Below are positions 5,983-63,479 of a stretch of DNA of 64,000 bases, one piece after another. Made by a program: the position numbers and the translations under genes. Location: IMG/VR virus record IMGVR_UViG_3300033156_000775, positions 1 through 64,000 of that record. One strand, 5' to 3'. The notes beneath the pieces are model-generated. The model made no database searches. It was given only the letters and a program-made list of their open reading frames with translations, and was not told the DNA's origin. Positions within the stretch are counted from its first letter, which is position 1; each line of letters starts with the position of its first letter. Source of the stretch: a virus.

Positions 5983-7825
5983 ATGGCTAGAAATAAGCTT
6001 CCAGACATCATGGCTGGCTGTATGGTTAAAAGTGTTTGAGTATGGCAAGAGCAGTGACAGGACTCTAGACCTAATCAAGGTCTTCAAGAAAGAGTCTGGC
6101 TTCAACGTTGAAGTGTATCAGGAGCCAAGTGACATCTACCTTAAAAAGTATGGTACACATGCATCTGGATGTGTACTTAGAGACTTCCAGTCCCTGATGA
6201 TGGACAATGAGGACTATTTTCTTATGCTGGACTCACATATAATGAGTGCTCCTAAGGATTATATTGAGAGGCTACTGTTCATAGACACTGATATTTCAGC
6301 TCCATATGTGTGGAATGAGGGACACACCCATTTCTATGACAGCTGGTGCTTCAGGATAGACAATAAAAGGTTCTCTCCATTCCATCCTCCAGACCAGCTA
6401 TACTGCTTCGAAGTTGACAGTGTAGGCACCACGTGGCTAGCTACTAGAGAGTCATTCCTAAACACATTTGTCTCCACCAACCCACTGAGCTTCTTCTACA
6501 ATGCAAGGACAATGGGATATGATGTTGTAGTAGACCCTAAGACACGTGTCGTACACTCAGACCTGACCAAATATGGGATAGTTAAGCTTCCTCCTCCACC
6601 TGAGCTTGGATACTATCCTAGTGAGGGGCTAGTTGACTCTTCCTTCCCAGTCACACCATACAAGAAGACAAGCAAGTCCATCTTCCATCGGACTTTGTAT
6701 GATAGCTTATGGTATTTCGTAGAGCTTAAAGCTCTTGAAGAGTGGTGTGTGAGCCCTATATACAAAAAAAGGACGTTGAGGACATGTAGAAGCTTTGTTG
6801 ACATGAACACGTTCTTCTGTACCAGAGATCCCTTCAAGATTAACGTAATGTACAAGGTTGAGATGTATCCTAGATATATAGAGGTAGAGCTGTCCAACAT
6901 TTGCCCCTTCAAGTGTATATGGTGTGAAAGGACATATCTTGAAGAAGAGCCTAGGCTGATGAGCTGGAAGGAATTCATGCTTATAATGAGCAACTTCCCT
7001 GACCTAGCTCAGATGTCGTTTACTGGTATAGGGGAGGCATGGACCAACCCTATTTTCCTAGATTGTATTAAGTATATAAAAGAGAGAGGAGTGTTCTTTG
7101 AGCAATATGACAACATGCAATTCATCACTAAAGAGAGAGCTGAAAAGCTAGTTAAGTATGGGGTTGAAAGAATAATTATCTCTCTAGATGCAGCTACTAA
7201 GAAGACTTATGAGAGAGTTAGAGTTGGACATAAATGGGATAAGATGCTGGATGGGCTTCGATATTTACAAAGAGCTAAGAAGAAGTTTAACGCTTACTAC
7301 CCAGTTATTGGGATTCACTTTGTTATTAACAAGGCTAATGTCCATGAAGCTCTAGACGTGTTAGATTTAGCTAAGCAGCTAGGAGTAGACTTTGTGTTCT
7401 ATAATAGGCTCCTACATAATTATCCAGAAATAAGTCACCTATACATGGAGATCCCTGAGTCCCTTAGAAGGGACATCATGGAGAGAGCTGGGGACCTGAG
7501 CATCAGGATCTCAATCAACCAGCCAGCTCAGGGAAAGCTACCTCCATTGAATGCATGTGTAGCACTGTTCCAGCCCTTCTTCCTAGTCAATGGAGATGTC
7601 ATCACTTGCTGTGCCCAACATGAGCATAATAAGCGTGACTGGGAAAAGGCAATGAAAATGGGCAACATATTTGAGGCTAGGGACTTCAGGAAGATATGGT
7701 ATGGCAAACGCTACAGACATCTGAGGAATCTCCTATACCAGAACAGACTTCCAGAGTACTGTATTGACTGTCCAGTATATGAGTGGAGAGGACACAAAGT
7801 ACACAAGGCAGTTGATTTAGAATGA
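5983..7825 (+). CDS. GT2-like glycosyltransferase fused to radical SAM/SPASM domain (frame break near 6030)
   Basis: FLMLDS..EVDSVGT (GT-A-like), CPFKCIWC (CxxxCxxC), and SPASM C..NGDVITCC..CIDC. The likely N-terminus MARNKLPDIMAGCMVK (5983-6039) is in another frame from ORF 6032. Confidence 0.8.
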
Positions 7826-8763
7826 GAATATTGATTCTTAACCCATCATTCAGAGTGTATGGTGGAGCTGAACTGGCCATCGTCAAGCTAGCTAATTATC
7901 TAAGAAACAGAGGAGACTCTGTTACAATCTATACTCTTGAAATGTCCAGTGAAGTAAAAAGAGATCTTGAAGGGACAAGTATTGAACTGTTTAAATCAAT
8001 TGAGGACTTAAGGAAACATCTCCATGGGACATATGACAGCTATGAGGTGATTAACTCTCACAACCATCCTATGGAGCTAATGCTTTATCCAATAAACTAT
8101 CCTCATATATGGTTCCACAATGAGCCTCCTGAGTATGTGCTGTATGGAAGGAGGCTTTCCCTATCAGAGAAGGCAATAGTCGTAAAGACAGTGGACAAGA
8201 TAGTATCAGCTACAATAGTTCCCTTTGGAGTTGACACCACGTTCTTTGACAGGGCTAAGGCTAATCCAGCTAGGGCTGAGATGAAGCTCGGACTACATGA
8301 ATCAGACTTTGTAGTGTTACATCCAGGATGGTTCAGCCCCTTCAAGAATCAATTTAGAACCCTATTAGCGTATACTGAGCTTCGGGACAAAGTCCCCAAC
8401 CTTAAGGTTGTGTTTCCAGGTATGACAAATACAGATTACTACAAGTACATTGCCAGAGCCATCAAGATCCATAGCCTAGATGGGATTGTTATTCCTGGAT
8501 TCATATCTAGAGAGCTTATGAGAGACCTCTATGCAAGATGCAATGTAGCTGTCTTTCCATACAGAGAGCAAGGTGGATTCCTAAGCATATTTGAAGCCCT
8601 AGCTATGGAGTGTAACGTCATAGTGTCTCCTGAATCTCCATGTATAGAATACATTGAAGAGAATGGTCTTTGCATAGTATCCAATAATCTGGAAGATGAG
8701 ATAATAAGGATTTATAAGGGCAAATACGGTTATCCGACAGCTAAAGCTAGGAAGTGGATTTGA
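7822..8763 (+). CDS. Glycosyltransferase family 4
   Basis: MRILIL..YGGAE, KNQ and EQGG..SIFEALA motifs; C-terminus looks truncated. Confidence 0.85.
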   Translation: MRILILNPSFRVYGGAELAIVKLANYLRNRGDSVTIYTLEMSSEVKRDLEGTSIELFKSIEDLRKHLHGTYDSYEVINSHNHPMELMLYPINYPHIWFHNEPPEYVLYGRRLSLSEKAIVVKTVDKIVSATIVPFGVDTTFFDRAKANPARAEMKLGLHESDFVVLHPGWFSPFKNQFRTLLAYTELRDKVPNLKVVFPGMTNTDYYKYIARAIKIHSLDGIVIPGFISRELMRDLYARCNVAVFPYREQGGFLSIFEALAMECNVIVSPESPCIEYIEENGLCIVSNNLEDEIIRIYKGKYGYPTAKARKWI

Positions 8764-57071: not shown

Positions 57072-57193
57072 CCCCTGAAATCCTTCTATTTTTTAGGAAG
57101 CCAGCTGAAGCAATAGAAGCGTCTAAGTCCTGGCTTCTACCTACATTTGTAGGCTCAGCTGGAGGCATCTAGACTGAAAGAGGTATGTGAACA

Positions 57194-57451
57194 ATGTCTG
57201 ATGAAGGAAACGTTTGGACCACTCCAGAGCCTAAGGTGCCTCCTACCATACAGGTAGGGGACAAAGAATTCAAGGTTGAGCTAGAGAGTGACTTTGTGTC
57301 CACTATACTTGGGATCGTAAGATCCCTAGGTATAGGTAGGTTCCTAGTGAAGTACAATGGCTCAGTGATCACACCAGCTGAAGCACCAGACACATTCGAG
57401 GACTATGCTGGAAAAACAATCGTAATAGAGCCAGTTGATGAAGCTGGATAA
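57194..57451 (+). CDS. Ubiquitin-like (beta-grasp) protein
   Basis: 85 aa; F.V.YNG..I.P..AP..F......I.I.P.DEAG with terminal Gly; first gene of an E2/E1/JAB cluster. Confidence 0.7.
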   Translation: MSDEGNVWTTPEPKVPPTIQVGDKEFKVELESDFVSTILGIVRSLGIGRFLVKYNGSVITPAEAPDTFEDYAGKTIVIEPVDEAG

Positions 57452-57483
57452 GAGCTTCTACACACTGGCTCACTTTTTTTTTC

Positions 57484-58635
57484 ATGGAGGATGTTTATAT
57501 GAGGCTTGTTTTCAAGAAGGATGGTGAAAGGCCTCCCAACTTCTATATTGAAATTTCCTATGAAGAGAAAGACCTGATTAACAATTATATCTATGAGAGT
57601 GGAGTTTACTATATCAGTGACAAGATCTACCTGACCAATGCCACTGTGGCTAGAGCTCTAGGTCTCTCATCCAGATATTTGGACTATCATCCATTTATGA
57701 GTAGTTTTACTTCTAGGGAGCTCTTAAGTGCAGCCAAGATAGACATTGAAGATCCTGATGAAAGACAAAAGCTCATCTCTTCAGTGTACAAATACCTGAA
57801 AAACAGGCTTGAGATAGCCATGTCCAAGACTGTTAGGGATGAACGTTCTATTCCCCTAGACATATCTCCATCCCTAGGAGAAATGAATGTAAGCCTAGAG
57901 GAAGTAGGAAAGATAGGGACACCTTTCCTCATCTCTATCGGGGACAAGGTGTTTGAGGCTAAGCTAGTAAAGGAGATTGACAGCTTCAGAGACTACATGC
58001 AGAGAAGGCTGAAGCAGATAGTGGGGGCATATAGAAACCACATTACAGCTACTCTCAGTGCCCTACGTGACGAGTATGATAGGAAACTAGAGGAAATAGA
58101 AAAAACCAGGGAAACAATGATCCCAATGCCTAACATCACTCTTAGTGACTTAGCTACTGGCATGAGAATATGTAGGAACAACCAGTACCTAGAGGTTTAT
58201 CTGCCAGTGAAGGTAGAGATCAAAAGAGTCTTTTACAACAAGAAATCTTTTACATTGAAAAAGGAGTACTGGTGTACTCTCAGAGGACTAGCTGGACTAG
58301 CACTGGATCGTGATCTTACAATAGTGTCAACCAAGTTTGTGAGGTCTAAGAGGGCAAGTAGGGGAGTTAGGCATCCTAACGTGAATGATGATGGAATGGT
58401 GTGTCTTGGCTATACTAGACAGATCCTAGGTAGGAGGCTAAACGACATACATGATGCTTACACATGGATATATTCAGTGGTTGATTTGCTGTCCGTACCT
58501 AACTTCGATGATGCATACGATGTCCATGTTTCACAATGGGCTAGGGAGGTCTTTGATGCTCTGGAAAGTGGCCACTCAAGTGAGGTAGTAGAGGAAGTGG
58601 CTACTCTTCCTTCAGAAGTAGTGTGGAGGACATAA
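57484..58635 (+). CDS. E2/UBC-like conjugating enzyme with N-terminal coiled coil
   Basis: HPNVNDDGMVCLG and LLSVPNFDD match the UBC HPN..G.ICL and LL..PN..D motifs. Confidence 0.75.
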   Translation: MEDVYMRLVFKKDGERPPNFYIEISYEEKDLINNYIYESGVYYISDKIYLTNATVARALGLSSRYLDYHPFMSSFTSRELLSAAKIDIEDPDERQKLISSVYKYLKNRLEIAMSKTVRDERSIPLDISPSLGEMNVSLEEVGKIGTPFLISIGDKVFEAKLVKEIDSFRDYMQRRLKQIVGAYRNHITATLSALRDEYDRKLEEIEKTRETMIPMPNITLSDLATGMRICRNNQYLEVYLPVKVEIKRVFYNKKSFTLKKEYWCTLRGLAGLALDRDLTIVSTKFVRSKRASRGVRHPNVNDDGMVCLGYTRQILGRRLNDIHDAYTWIYSVVDLLSVPNFDDAYDVHVSQWAREVFDALESGHSSEVVEEVATLPSEVVWRT

Positions 58636-58638
58636 CTA

Positions 58639-59277
58639 TTGTACGCTAGGCAGTCTAGTTTAAATCTCCATATTCCAAGTGACATTGGGATCATCGGGTG
58701 TGGAGGCATAGGCTCATGGGTAGCCATCTACTCTGCTATGGGAGGAGTAAGGACAATCAGCTTGTTTGACCCTGACATCCTAGAGATCCATAACCTGAAT
58801 AGACTTCCATATCCTGAGAGTGCTGTGGGCATGAAGAAAGTAGATGTCCTTAGAGAATACCTAGTCCACATTAGGCCTCAGAGTGAGGTATTTGCCTACG
58901 ATAGACGTATTTCAAGGGACAATGCAACCCTACTTCACAAGTGTAAAATAGTCTTTGACTGTACAGATAGCACCAGAGCCCATAGGTTGATAGAGGGCTT
59001 ATGGGTCAAGAAGAGCTTTACTGATCTGATTAGAGCCTCATATGATGGTGACCATTACACCTTGTCCAAGAACCTTCGTTTAGAGAGCATGTCTTGGGGA
59101 AATGAAACCTCTGGGTACCAGATTGTCCCCAGCTGGGTCATCCCAGCATCGTTCATAGCCCAGATTGCATGTTGGTTGGCATATGCTGAGGATGCCCCTG
59201 AAAGATACTTTCTTTCTAACAGTTTAAGGAATACTGTTAACCGTTTCATTTATGGAGGTAAGACCACAATTGACTAG
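58639..59277 (+). CDS. ThiF/MoeB/E1-family adenylating enzyme
   Basis: Y.RQ, GCGGIGS, FDPDILEIHNLNR, G.KKV and FDCTD motifs. Confidence 0.9.
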   Translation: MYARQSSLNLHIPSDIGIIGCGGIGSWVAIYSAMGGVRTISLFDPDILEIHNLNRLPYPESAVGMKKVDVLREYLVHIRPQSEVFAYDRRISRDNATLLHKCKIVFDCTDSTRAHRLIEGLWVKKSFTDLIRASYDGDHYTLSKNLRLESMSWGNETSGYQIVPSWVIPASFIAQIACWLAYAEDAPERYFLSNSLRNTVNRFIYGGKTTID

Positions 59278-59907
59278 AAGGAGGAGAAAAAAGAAGAGGA
59301 AAGCTACAGAGGAAACAGGTGGCATACTAGTAGTAGTGGATGATAGGGATAGGAGCAGTGAATTGTCATACCATATCCGTTGATTGCCAGGATCTCCAGC
59401 CTAGTTTCTAGACTTCATACTGAGTGGCTAGGTTACTTGGACTATGAACAGGTTGAGGACAATGGTAGACTTGTGTACAGAGCTACAGAGATTACTATCC
59501 CAGATCAGGAGGTCACATACTCATCGGTAAACGTTAACGATCCTGCTATAGGGATAGGTAAAGGAGTCATCCACTGTCATCCCTGGAAGGGATATTCATC
59601 TCATTCTAACACTGATGAGGACTACGTTGATAGGAATCATCCCTTCAGCATAGTTGTAAACAAGGACTTGGACTTCTCTGTAAAAGCTGTAGTAGACGTC
59701 CCATGTGGGTCTAGGATACTAGTAGATGGGGAAGTAGAAATTGAATATCCAGATGTGGATACCAAGTCCTTCCTAGAGGAGGCTAAGAGCAAAATCAAGG
59801 AGAAGAAGTATGTCTACAGATACTCTGCATCTAGGAAAAAGTCATCAGGGATAACTGCTATGGAGTATGGGTACCTAGATCCATACTCATATTCCTGGAT
59901 GCCGTAG
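59270..59907 (+). CDS. JAB/MPN+ metalloprotease (deconjugase), frame break near 59360
   Basis: EWLGYL..PDQEV..IHCHP....HSNTD (JAMM motif); the RBS-preceded TTG 59270 is in another frame from ORF 59380. Confidence 0.8.
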
Positions 59908-60605: not shown

Positions 60606-61841
60606 ATGGAAAGCTCTATGGAATGGATACCATCTGAAATACTGTCATCAATTAGAGAGGAGCTCAAGGGAGCTAGAAGTATCCAGGATATCAGGAGTAT
60701 TGTAGTCCAAGCTACAAGATGTAAGCCTGGTGACATTAAAGATTTCCATTACAAGCTTGGAGGACATGACTGGAAAGGGGTGATCTATACTAAACGGAAC
60801 ACTCTTATGGGATCAGTATTCTCACTGTTTGACAGTAAACCCTTTGTAGTTAGAGGCTATCCTAAGATCAGATATGCATTAGATTCTAAACTCTTAGGAA
60901 AGGAAGTAACTGTACAGATGAAGTATGACGGGACTAACATTGGACTTTTCCTCCTACCTAATGGAGAGATCATGGGAAAGACTAGGCTGATGCCTAGATG
61001 GGATGTCCAGTCTTTACAGGCTATGAAGAGACAGGTTTCTCATTGGAAAGAGCTCTTTACGAAGATAGATGATGGCTATCTCCTTAAGCAAGTCAAGTAT
61101 CTAGCTGAAGATGACTACATGATATTTGGAGAGCTCTATGGATATCTAAATCCTGGAGAATTCATTAAATATTCAATTCCAATAGCCTTCAAAGCTTTCG
61201 ATATAGTTGACACTAGGACACTAAAGTTTCTTAGCTCTAAAGACATGGAGGATCTATGCTATGAGCTGGACATTCCATATGTAGAGGAGCTATGGCATGG
61301 TATCCTAACTAGGAAAGAGGTTGAACGAATAGAGTACGAAGCTAAACAGTATGTAAGAGAGGATGGCTATGAGGGATTTGTAGCTAAGCATTTCTCCCCT
61401 ATAGATAACGACATGCACTTCTGCAAGCTTAAATGTGAAGAGATAAAGGAGAAAGCCTGGAAGCTTAGACCTACTGGAATCCCAATTTCTATTATTCGTA
61501 AAGCCATACGAAAGGCTATGGAAAGCTACCCATACTATGACAAAGTAGATCAGCTATATCCAGTAGTTAGAGAGGAGCTCCTAGAAGAAGTAGAGCCCTC
61601 ATTGGTAGATGAATCAGAGAACAAGATAAGATCTGTTATTAGAAGAGTACTGTCTCCTACACCTGAGGAGCTAAAGAAGTCCATAAGGGAAATTATGCTT
61701 GAGCTTAGGGAGAGAGGTATGGACTTGAACAAGAAGGGAGAAGTGCTCCCAGCTCTAGCTCATCGTCTAGGAGACATATCAGGAAAAATGCTTTACAGAC
61801 TTTACACTCAAGTCTTATTTGAGATGGAAAGTGAAGTGTAG
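60606..61841 (+). CDS. ATP-dependent RNA ligase (Rnl2/Rnl3-like)
   Basis: VRGYPKI, KYDGTN, FGELYG, AFDI, EGFVAK and KLK motifs. Confidence 0.8.
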   Translation: MESSMEWIPSEILSSIREELKGARSIQDIRSIVVQATRCKPGDIKDFHYKLGGHDWKGVIYTKRNTLMGSVFSLFDSKPFVVRGYPKIRYALDSKLLGKEVTVQMKYDGTNIGLFLLPNGEIMGKTRLMPRWDVQSLQAMKRQVSHWKELFTKIDDGYLLKQVKYLAEDDYMIFGELYGYLNPGEFIKYSIPIAFKAFDIVDTRTLKFLSSKDMEDLCYELDIPYVEELWHGILTRKEVERIEYEAKQYVREDGYEGFVAKHFSPIDNDMHFCKLKCEEIKEKAWKLRPTGIPISIIRKAIRKAMESYPYYDKVDQLYPVVREELLEEVEPSLVDESENKIRSVIRRVLSPTPEELKKSIREIMLELRERGMDLNKKGEVLPALAHRLGDISGKMLYRLYTQVLFEMESEV

Positions 61842-62095: not shown

Positions 62096-62635
62096 GTGAA
62101 AACGTGGTTTACAGCTGACACTCACTTTGGACATTCTAATATTATCAAGTACTGTAACAGACCATTCAAGTCAGTAGATCATATGGATATGAGGCTTATC
62201 CAGCTATGGAACTCTAGGGTTAAGAAGCATGACATAGTTATCCATCTAGGGGACTTTATGTTTAAGGACATCAATAAGAGGGAATACTATCTAGACCAGC
62301 TTAATGGACACATTACCTTCATAAGGGGAAACCATGACCATAGCAATTCTCTCAATACCAAGATTAGCTACCTAGTGGTTCACATATCCAACATGGATGT
62401 TTACTGTACTCATAGACCTGAGGACTTTAATTCCTCCTATCCTATCAACCTTGTAGGTCATGTCCATGAGAAATGGAAGGTAAAGAAGATCTACAACACT
62501 TATCTGGTCAATGTGGGAGTGGATGTCTGGAACTATCATCCTGTAGATATCAATGAGATCCTAAAGGCTATTAATGATTACAAGCTCTTCTGGGAGAAGA
62601 TAGGGAAGACAGGCCAGGTAGGTTTAACTGAATGA
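62096..62635 (+). CDS. Calcineurin-like phosphoesterase
   Basis: DTHFGH, LGDF, GNHD and GHVH motifs. Confidence 0.9.
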   Translation: MKTWFTADTHFGHSNIIKYCNRPFKSVDHMDMRLIQLWNSRVKKHDIVIHLGDFMFKDINKREYYLDQLNGHITFIRGNHDHSNSLNTKISYLVVHISNMDVYCTHRPEDFNSSYPINLVGHVHEKWKVKKIYNTYLVNVGVDVWNYHPVDINEILKAINDYKLFWEKIGKTGQVGLTE

Positions 62636-62727: not shown

Positions 62728-63184
62728 AAGAGTTTCGAAAACAAAAGTTGTCTGCCTTTCTTGCGGTCGTAGTATCTATCTTAAGCCTTTACCGAGCTGT
62801 GCTGAACCTGCTCACTTGGCATATTATGAAAAAAGAAAGAAACGAAATAATGAATACAGGAGAAAACGCCGTGAGGAAGCTAGAAGACGAGGTGAAGTGT
62901 ATCGTTCTGAAAGACCTGAAACAAGAAGAGCAAGAGAAAGGAGGAAATACAGAAAGGTTAGAGAGGCTTTGCTCCAAAAATTGGGAGGAAAATGTGTGCG
63001 ATGTGGTTTCTCAGATATTAGGGCATTGCATATCCATCATATAAATGGAGATGGAGGGAAAGAACGTAAAAAACTTGGATGGAAATATCTTAAGATTCTC
63101 TCAGAAATGCCAGAAAAAGAACTTAGAGAACAATATGAAGTCCTCTGTGCGAATTGCCATGAAATCCTCCATCACACCAGTTAG
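62714..63184 (+). CDS. HNH homing endonuclease
   Basis: LGGKCVRCG..L.IHHI.G.G...VLCANCH...H. Confidence 0.85.
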   Translation: MPWSKRVSKTKVVCLSCGRSIYLKPLPSCAEPAHLAYYEKRKKRNNEYRRKRREEARRRGEVYRSERPETRRARERRKYRKVREALLQKLGGKCVRCGFSDIRALHIHHINGDGGKERKKLGWKYLKILSEMPEKELREQYEVLCANCHEILHHTS

Positions 63185-63479
63185 GGTTCAGAGAAAGAGA
63201 ACTAAAGGTTTCAGACTTCAAGATGCTAGTCCTAACGGGCTTCCTGTAGTCTATGTTGGACGTCCATCTAAATGGGCAAACCCATTTAGAATAGGTATTG
63301 ACGGAGACAGGGAAGCTGTAGTTAGGAAATTTAGAGAATATGCTATGAAAAAGTTGAAAGAAGATCCTAACTGGCTAGAACCTTTAAGAGGTAAGGATCT
63401 GGCATGCTGGTGTCCTCTAGATAAGCCTTGTCATGCTGATGTCTTGATAGAGCTTCTAAGAAAGGAGGCTGGTAAATGA
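63159..63479 (+). CDS. DUF4326 family protein
   Basis: VYVGRPSKWANPF..LRGKDLACWC...PCHADVL. Confidence 0.85.
   Translation: MKSSITPVRVQRKRTKGFRLQDASPNGLPVVYVGRPSKWANPFRIGIDGDREAVVRKFREYAMKKLKEDPNWLEPLRGKDLACWCPLDKPCHADVLIELLRKEAGK

Follow-up and report, generated by a model that had tools for sequence, protein, structure and literature searches.

The window analysed here is a stretch of 64,000 nucleotides, bases 1-64000 of the IMG/VR virus record IMGVR_UViG_3300033156_000775, and at positions 57194-59907 it carries four same-strand genes in the order Ubl-E2-E1-JAB. We read these genes, with a probability of roughly 0.78, as a self-contained, virus-encoded module for the conjugation of a ubiquitin-like protein (Ubl). 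The first of them (57194-57451, on the plus strand like all that follow) encodes the Ubl, 85 amino acids (aa) with the C-terminal end ..IEPVDEAG*, and is followed by the genes for an E2-like protein of 378 aa (57499-58635) and a minimal E1 of 212 aa with a TTG start and a single ThiF-type adenylation domain (58639-59277). The JAB/JAMM core of 175 aa is read from a TTG (59380-59907, the frame being open from 59362), and a 43-aa Lys/Arg-rich open reading frame (ORF) before it (59252-59383) is the remnant of the JAB N-terminus. The E1 ORF begins 4 nt past the E2 stop codon and the E1 and JAB-remnant ORFs overlap, the enzyme genes being packed end to end, unlike the Ubl gene, which is set off from the next gene by a gap. 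Ubl, E2 and JAB each occur once in the whole genome, but E1 twice. The record comprises 107,029 bp with direct terminal repeats of 114 bp and is rated complete; its genes include those for a large terminase (TerL) and for an HK97-type capsid protein, which identify a tailed virus. A preliminary description of this DNA had proposed four adjacent co-directional genes borne by a virus, an 85-aa protein ending DEAG, the motifs HPNVNDDGMVCLG, LLSVPNFDD and HCH...SNTD, a T9 run at 57474-57482, and the lack of sulfur-transfer genes and of an E3. All four ORFs, the DEAG end and the T9 run were recovered at the positions given, the motifs are conserved across homologues, and Pfam found no E3, rhodanese, sulfur-transfer or other informative domain in the ten ORFs flanking the cassette.

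The E2-like protein probably starts at the ATG at 57499, given that the corresponding MKL is where homologues begin and that a GGAGGA stands 7 nt before this ATG; the ORF is open from an ATG at 57484, and 57484-58635 would give 383 aa. Taken singly its sequence is marginal, with an E of 0.0038 and 17.3 bits against Pfam UQ_con, below the gathering cut-off of 27 bits for that family, and an E of 0.01 against UBE2C in the PDB. The UBE2C alignment puts HPNVNDDGMVCLG on HPNVDTQGNICLD, and the Cys of the viral protein thus coincides with the catalytic Cys of UBE2C. The active-site residues are H292-P-N294 followed by Cys302 (Cys307 in the numbering of the 383-aa form); HPNVxDxGxVCLG and NFDxA were invariant among nine homologues of 40-100% identity, and the catalytic Cys was invariant in 33 family members. 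A profile built from these 33 members matched UBE2C at 5e-4 and 99 UBC chains under E=1. When 1.84 billion representative proteins were searched with the E2 profile, 771 clusters (50% identity) were found at E<=1e-3 and 128 at <=1e-30, most family members having HYH...DCWG in place of HPN...VCLG, and 142 members run against Pfam matched no family apart from five weak UQ_con matches.

A UBC-like domain behind a long coiled-coil N-terminus had been suggested, with structure prediction as the check, and this was run with AlphaFold2 and Foldseek. On an alignment of 142 sequences the model reached a mean predicted local distance difference test (pLDDT) score of 87.9, as against 49 on a shallow alignment of nine. 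The modelled protein consists of an alpha/beta domain (residues ~1-115) specific to the clade of the window, a beta-hairpin and 46-residue helix (~143-206) and a UBC-fold domain (~205-365). All of the top 50 PDB matches of the model were E2 enzymes (probability up to 0.97, E from 7e-3), as were the top VIA structural matches; searched by parts, the C-terminal domain matched E2 enzymes exclusively and the 46-residue helix coiled coils exclusively, in keeping with both halves of the suggestion. The best named match in BFVD was the E2 of African swine fever virus (ASFV; probability 0.97), and a number of proteins without a name, from uncultured phages and from crAss-like phages, are also among the weak structural neighbours there. 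The scores are moderate but uniform, extend over the whole domain and are consistent with the active-site alignment, and the C-terminal half of the modelled protein is therefore accepted as a diverged UBC fold.

The E1 was supported as the ThiF/E1 adenylase that had been proposed, matching Pfam ThiF at 5.6e-27 with 94.9 bits (cut-off 28.1 bits) and, in the PDB, Uba4, TcdA, ThiF, MoeB, MccB and UBA5. R4, the GxGGxG glycines (G20/22/23/25), D46, N52, R55, K67 and D110 were invariant in 35 cassette-type relatives, residues that place it by sequence in the E1/ThiF adenylation domain superfamily. The proposal that neither the CxxC pairs of MoeB nor a catalytic Cys is present was borne out both in the window and in the alignment of relatives. 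The window E1 has Cys at 21, 102, 108 and 178 only, with no CxxC and none in the crossover segment 137-164 between the YDG strand and the PSW motif; 33 of the 35 relatives likewise have no crossover Cys and 34 no CxxC. The catalytic Cys in a crossover loop or CYS domain that defines canonical Ubl-activating E1s (UBA1, UBA5, BilD, Cap2) is thus absent. Tyr160 is kept in 34 of the 35 relatives, and in the Bub systems the E1s are also Cys-less and carry an invariant crossover-loop Tyr, the replacement of which by Phe abolishes conjugation (PMC11601596). More distant viral E1s paired with JAB alone have a P-C-[TSN] Cys at the crossover place instead.

The second, divergent ThiF/E1 of the genome, of 223 aa, lies outside the window at genome positions 73569-74240 (L001:1450-2121). 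It has a crossover-region Cys of the P-C-[TSN] type (..DIDPCNYPLA..) and resembles the Cys-type E1s that are paired with JAB alone in about 25 viral contigs; of the cassette families Ubl, E2 and JAB, no further copy accompanies it in the genome. On a contig of an Aenigmatarchaeota metagenome-assembled genome (MAG; L132:5977-6827), a 199-aa E1 is directly followed by a 79-aa Lys/Glu-rich protein ending ..KMKGG.

The Ubl is extremely conserved in close relatives, 79-92% identical in five related loci even where E2 identity falls to 40%, and its family of 32 sequences has the consensus I.VNG...VE....F......A...G..KF.V..NG.EI.P..AP.....G...EI.P.D.AG. In most of the 32 relatives the C-terminus is [YF]D[EV]AG, alone or extended by 1-9 residues, and AG with a tail of 0-9 aa is, at the level of sequence, the precursor pattern of Ubls. 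A terminal or exposable Gly is accordingly encoded next to an E1, and the Ubl gene always lies 5' of E2/E1 in relatives. The window Ubl alone had no match in Pfam, NCBIfam or PHROG, and the 40 homologues found include none with a name. With the family profile SUMO chains led the PDB matches, at 3.3e-4 for a tandem chain and a weak 0.015 for a single domain, and the ESM atlas gave scores of about 0.8 to ubiquitin, Rad60-SLD and TmoB. Single weak Pfam matches of family members fell on ThiS (0.0015), Fer2_4, RBD and UBXL, all of which we take to be beta-grasp families. A beta-grasp fold is likely on these profile and embedding matches.

A two-part, terminator- or attenuator-like hairpin (57428-57471, plus strand) encloses the Ubl stop codon and is followed by AC and the T9 run (57474-57482). 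Its RNA fold was -23.3 kcal/mol with a z of -4.5, and none of 200 shuffles was equally stable. The non-coding 3' arm and a T8-T9 are kept in six loci with one compensatory pair (G-C/A-U), and most of the distant cassettes also show a strong hairpin 3' of Ubl and a gap of ~70-130 nt to the next gene. The hairpin and T9 run together probably stop part of the transcripts. On the 5' side of the Ubl gene, a perfect palindrome CCTACA-TT-TGTAGG (57140-57153) is nested within an 8-bp inverted repeat, CCAGCTGA (57101-57108) and TCAGCTGG (57155-57162); together these may form an operator or else a terminator for the gene that precedes.

For the fourth gene, the window JAB and its close relatives taken alone matched nothing in Pfam, NCBIfam or the PDB. 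Iterated family hidden Markov models (HMMs) tied the window protein to a family of 54 members (E 4e-47), 33 of which match Pfam Prok-JAB (best 1.9e-9). The family profile matched the AMSH-like sst2 at 1e-10, then Rpn11, CSN5, AfJAMM and BilC, and the ESM atlas gave 0.95 to viral clusters bearing Prok-JAB. The sole invariant residues in the 54 aligned members were E15, H65-x-H67, S76 and D79. The spacing in the clade of the window is HxHx8Sx2D, with one residue more than the canonical HxHx7Sx2D of most relatives. By its zinc site and JAB homology the protein belongs to the JAMM/MPN+ metalloproteases.

The four genes also travel together. A survey of operon conservation in viral data had been proposed and was carried out. 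In each of the seven metagenome loci where an E2 homologue was found, the four genes were the same and stood in the same order. A scan of IMG/VR viral contigs with the alignment of close E2 homologues gave no match. With an E1 alignment that included L010, 67 IMG/VR loci were recovered and were sorted with the family HMMs. The order Ubl-E2-E1-JAB was found in about 19 further contigs, Ubl-E1-E2-JAB in 3-5, and Ubl followed by a large unassigned protein and then E1-JAB in about seven, while JAB-E1 pairs with a Cys-type E1 made up about 25. All four genes occur together in about 26 loci, the set is kept in about 35 IMG/VR viral contigs, and E1 stands with JAB in nearly all of 66 related viral contigs; the arrangement is far beyond chance, and the cassette recurs in dozens of uncultured viruses. 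A tblastn search of 50,697 GenBank phage records with E2 proteins of two clades and with E1 gave no match. In species-representative genomes the cassette was found only on about 10 MAG contigs, mostly short, assigned to taxa that include Thermoplasmata (Guaymas), Woesearchaeota, Desulfurococcales, Ignavibacteria, Zixibacteria and Bacteroidota; the other matches there were ordinary ThiF/MoeB.

Several of the more distant cassettes have distinctive surroundings. In 13 loci of the HYH clade (L010, L017, L020-L024, L026, L027, L029-L031 and L035) the Ubl adjoins T4-type clamp-loader genes, in a neighbourhood spanning ~1-3.7 kb of each locus: a gp44-like gene (Gp44_lid), a gp62-like gene (Phage_clamp_A) and a gene for a conserved 245-aa protein precede the Ubl, and T4 RNase H and a PDDEXK nuclease lie downstream. 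The 245-aa protein had no Pfam or PDB match, and its designation as a sliding clamp, which it may be, therefore derives from synteny only. In L033 (3033-4952) and five related loci of the arrangement Ubl...E1-JAB, a protein of 450-640 aa without a Pfam match stands in the place of E2, perhaps as a still more diverged E2 or else as a substrate. On the 68-kb viral contig L010, a protein with TROVE and Ro60-vWA domains (6940-8592; Pfam 2e-24) is encoded 0.7 kb 3' of the cassette.

The following pathway is proposed. The intact adenylation residues suggest that the minimal E1 adenylates the C-terminal Gly of the 85-aa Ubl. As the E1 has no catalytic Cys, the Ubl would then reach Cys302 of the E2 either straight from the adenylate or through an oxyester on Tyr160, as in Bub E1s. 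Direct transfer of Ubl-AMP to the E2, suggested earlier, is possible, and by analogy with Bub the Tyr-oxyester step is an equally good reading. With no E3 present, the E2 itself would probably select the targets, as is thought for Bil E2s, probably through its conserved N-terminal extension of ~200 residues. The JAMM protease may trim the Ubl tails in those relatives that bear them, strip the tag from targets, or both; the window Ubl already ends in Gly and needs no trimming, and its JAB gene lacks the N-terminus. Early termination of some transcripts at the hairpin and T9 run between Ubl and E2 would leave more tag than enzyme. An effect of the T9 run on Ubl levels had been suggested before, and the conserved hairpin strengthens the suggestion without taking it beyond sequence inference. 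Candidate roles for such tagging are the inactivation or degradation of host proteins, counter-defence and the control of replication factors; replication proteins as targets are an idea that the clamp-loader synteny raises.

Several observations weigh against a working conjugation module. The Ubl homologue of L010 ends ..TPASS and those of L041 and L055 end ..YYEAK, not in Gly, and the profile matches on which the beta-grasp fold of the Ubl is predicted are weak. The terminator function of the hairpin is read from the nucleotide sequence, and a scan for sigma-70 promoters and terminators found fewer sites than in shuffles and did not call the hairpin, which it missed because of the long loop. 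TcdA, an RNA-modifying adenylase, is narrowly the top PDB relative of the E1 family. A further point concerns the JAB gene, which differs from those of L003, L004, L005 and L008 by a 52-nt deletion and a 12-nt insertion (59240-59400) with a net frameshift; L004, 90% related, retains an intact JAB N-terminus. The JAMM protease of the preliminary description therefore stands as regards its JAMM residues, the Prok-JAB matches of 33 of 54 family members and the AMSH/Rpn11 homology at 1e-10, but not as an intact gene, being 5'-truncated or split relative to all relatives. A C..PH..V.V segment that relatives conserve is missing from the core together with some of the first strand, and the window JAB, truncated at its N-terminus, may be impaired. 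The TGA of the 43-aa remnant overlaps the TTG of the core (TTGA), and genuine decay, coupled re-initiation and an error of assembly are all possible causes of the split. That the cassette is a decaying or non-functional remnant being lost from this virus would account for the loss of the JAB N-terminus, including the first beta-strand region, by deletion and frameshift. The Ubl, E2 and E1 are intact, however, with every catalytic residue kept, the JAB core retains all five JAMM residues and the coupled TTG start, and since the window Ubl needs no processing conjugation can proceed without JAB; of the readings considered here, a remnant is the one to which we give the least credence.

That the Ubl is instead a sulfur carrier of the ThiS/MoaD/Urm1/TtuB type, forming a thiocarboxylate for cofactor synthesis or tRNA thiolation with the "E2" and JAB as accessory proteins, agrees with the E1 being nearest by sequence to ThiF, MoeB, Uba4 and TcdA, with a ThiS/MoaD-like Ubl consensus and one family member matching Pfam ThiS at 0.0015, and with the RNA-repair enzymes nearby. 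In the neighbourhood scanned with Pfam, however, no rhodanese, cysteine desulfurase, ThiG/MoaE or TtuA-like gene was found, the E1 is without the CxxC and Cys residues of MoeB/ThiF, and an invariant-Cys UBC-fold protein and a JAMM protease, needless for sulfur transfer, co-occur with it in dozens of viruses, so that a sulfur carrier is very unlikely. ThiS genes sought beside cellular ThiF loci for a profile-profile test were not found. Somewhat better odds, albeit still poor, go to an aid in virion or replisome assembly, in the manner of the lambda gpI/gpK-like Ubl and JAB or by modification of the virus's own clamp and replication proteins. Pairs of Ubl and JAB are known in lambdoid tail modules (PMC1779556), and in the 13 distant cassettes the Ubl directly follows the clamp-loader genes and the putative 245-aa clamp, with T4 RNase H downstream. 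The window cassette, though, stands outside the structural module of a genome that has no clamp-loader homologue, no match confirmed the 245-aa protein as a clamp, and the synteny with replication genes may reflect merely a shared timing of expression. The conjugation module remains the preferred reading.

Among described systems, Bil (BilABCD, types I and II) likewise encodes a Ubl, an E2, a JAB/JAMM peptidase and an E1 without an E3 (10.1101/2023.09.26.559546; PMC11601596), and shares the traits that the E2 is thought to choose the targets, that the JAB pre-processes Ubl tails and that the Ubl ends in Gly. The gene order, on the other hand, is Ubl-E2-JAB-E1 in Bil and Ubl-E2-E1-JAB here. The Bil E1 has ~500 aa with IAD, AAD and CYS domains, a catalytic Cys and a Zn site, whereas the E1 here has 212 aa in one domain, with no crossover-loop Cys and no CxxC, and the Bil E2 has a CEHH motif in place of HPN/HYH...C with an N-terminal extension of ~200 aa. 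Bil serves host defence and the present cassette is borne by a virus. A Bil assignment was rejected on gene order, on the three-domain Cys-bearing E1 and on the CEHH E2. PADLOC models for E1-E2 matched the E1 only, and PADLOC gave no match for the Ubl, E2 or JAB.

The Bub systems (6E/DUF6527; PMC11601596) share with the cassette a minimal, homodimer-type Cys-less E1 whose crossover loop bears an invariant Tyr close to its end, and Bub operons also hold a JAB peptidase and a Ubl (PMC11601596). The Bub E2 uses Ser, in an all-oxyester chemistry, and is without C-terminal helices; here an invariant Cys follows HPN, and the E2 model can be aligned with full UBC cores over their residues 3-143. Bub fusions (Ubl-E2, E2-E1 and JAB-E1) and the DUF6527 protein BubE do not occur here, and Bub was rejected on the grounds that the Cys-less Tyr-E1 alone is shared, the E2 having a Cys and the neighbours neither DUF6527 nor fusions. 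Type II cyclic oligonucleotide-based antiphage signalling systems (CBASS) with Cap2/Cap3 were rejected as well, the genes being separate here and no CD-NTase being found among the Pfam-scanned ORFs flanking the cassette. With E2s of the eukaryotic type (UBC, UQ_con; Caldiarchaeum/Asgard, giant viruses and ASFV) the viral E2 shares the HPN, the Cys 7 residues on, a downstream (P)N-x-D and a UBC fold with C-terminal helices. It differs from them in scoring below the Pfam cut-off, in an identity of ~15% with a root-mean-square deviation above 4 A, in its large N-terminal extension, in the HYH of most family members, in a partner E1 that is a minimal ThiF without crossover Cys, and in the lack of a RING E3.

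The cassette is thus read as a separate variant among the known Ubl conjugation operons of prokaryotes, distinguished by a new E2 family and by being owned by viruses; it lacks the defining features of Bil and Cap2/Cap3 and has only the Tyr-type E1 in common with Bub. Prokaryotic Ubl conjugation has hitherto been described as host defence (Bil, CBASS Cap2/3 and probably Bub) or as archaeal housekeeping (SAMP/Urm1). In the literature consulted we found no description of such viral Ubl cascades, or of a Cys-less, Tyr-bearing E1 paired with a Cys-E2. A complete cascade would here be owned by viruses and kept in dozens of genomes of uncultured viruses; the E2 family, with the 771 clusters, is large and without a Pfam model, and the pairing of a Tyr-E1 with a Cys-E2 would show flexibility in the chemistry of the E1-to-E2 hand-off. 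A more far-reaching and rather doubtful extension is that of a widespread viral cascade of mixed chemistry. In it a minimal Cys-less E1 would charge, by a Tyr oxyester or directly from the adenylate, a Cys-E2 of an unrecognised UBC family, of which the HPN version, nearest to eukaryotic E2s, would reside in viruses of Asgard-type archaea, and host or replisome proteins would be tagged. Viruses would then carry, and might also have donated, E2-type enzymes close to the boundary between prokaryotes and eukaryotes.

The host is somewhat more probably than otherwise an Asgard or other archaeon. An ERCC4/XPF-type nuclease is encoded outside the window at genome positions 92399-92779 (2e-17), and in the controls this nuclease was found in archaeal genomes only; the genome also holds a LigD_N protein, an RNA ligase and the two ThiF genes, and on these four counts it resembles the Nidhogg viruses of Helarchaeota from the Guaymas Basin, whose three E1-like genes were read as a hijack of the host ubiquitin system (10.1101/2021.07.29.454249). 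Features of the Nidhogg viruses are RNA ligase, a LigD-type protein, PrimPol, an ERCC4 nuclease and several ThiF/E1-like genes; those common to both are the RNA ligase, LigD-type protein, ERCC4 nuclease and ThiF genes, and the likeness extends to complete genomes within the 22-117 kb range of that paper and to hydrothermal sediment (Rambo et al., 10.1101/2021.07.29.454249). No TROVE, Peptidase_C57 or homeodomain protein was found when the genome was searched, phmmer with the TROVE protein of L010 was likewise negative, and the Nidhogg likeness therefore derives from the other shared genes. TerL similarity was uninformative on the host. The Nidhogg preprint reports E1-like genes only, without mention of a viral Ubl, E2 or JAB (10.1101/2021.07.29.454249); should the present host be an Asgard archaeon, the virus would bring its own tag, carrier and protease, beyond hijacking host ubiquitin by means of E1 homologues.

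The genes 3' of the cassette encode an RNA ligase (60606-61841; Pfam 1.5e-14), a neighbour also kept in L005, a calcineurin-like phosphoesterase (metallophosphoesterase; 62096-62635) and a DUF4326 protein (63045-63479). Farther away, at positions 6032-7825 of the window, a radical SAM and SPASM protein of 597 aa is encoded within a block of co-directional genes.

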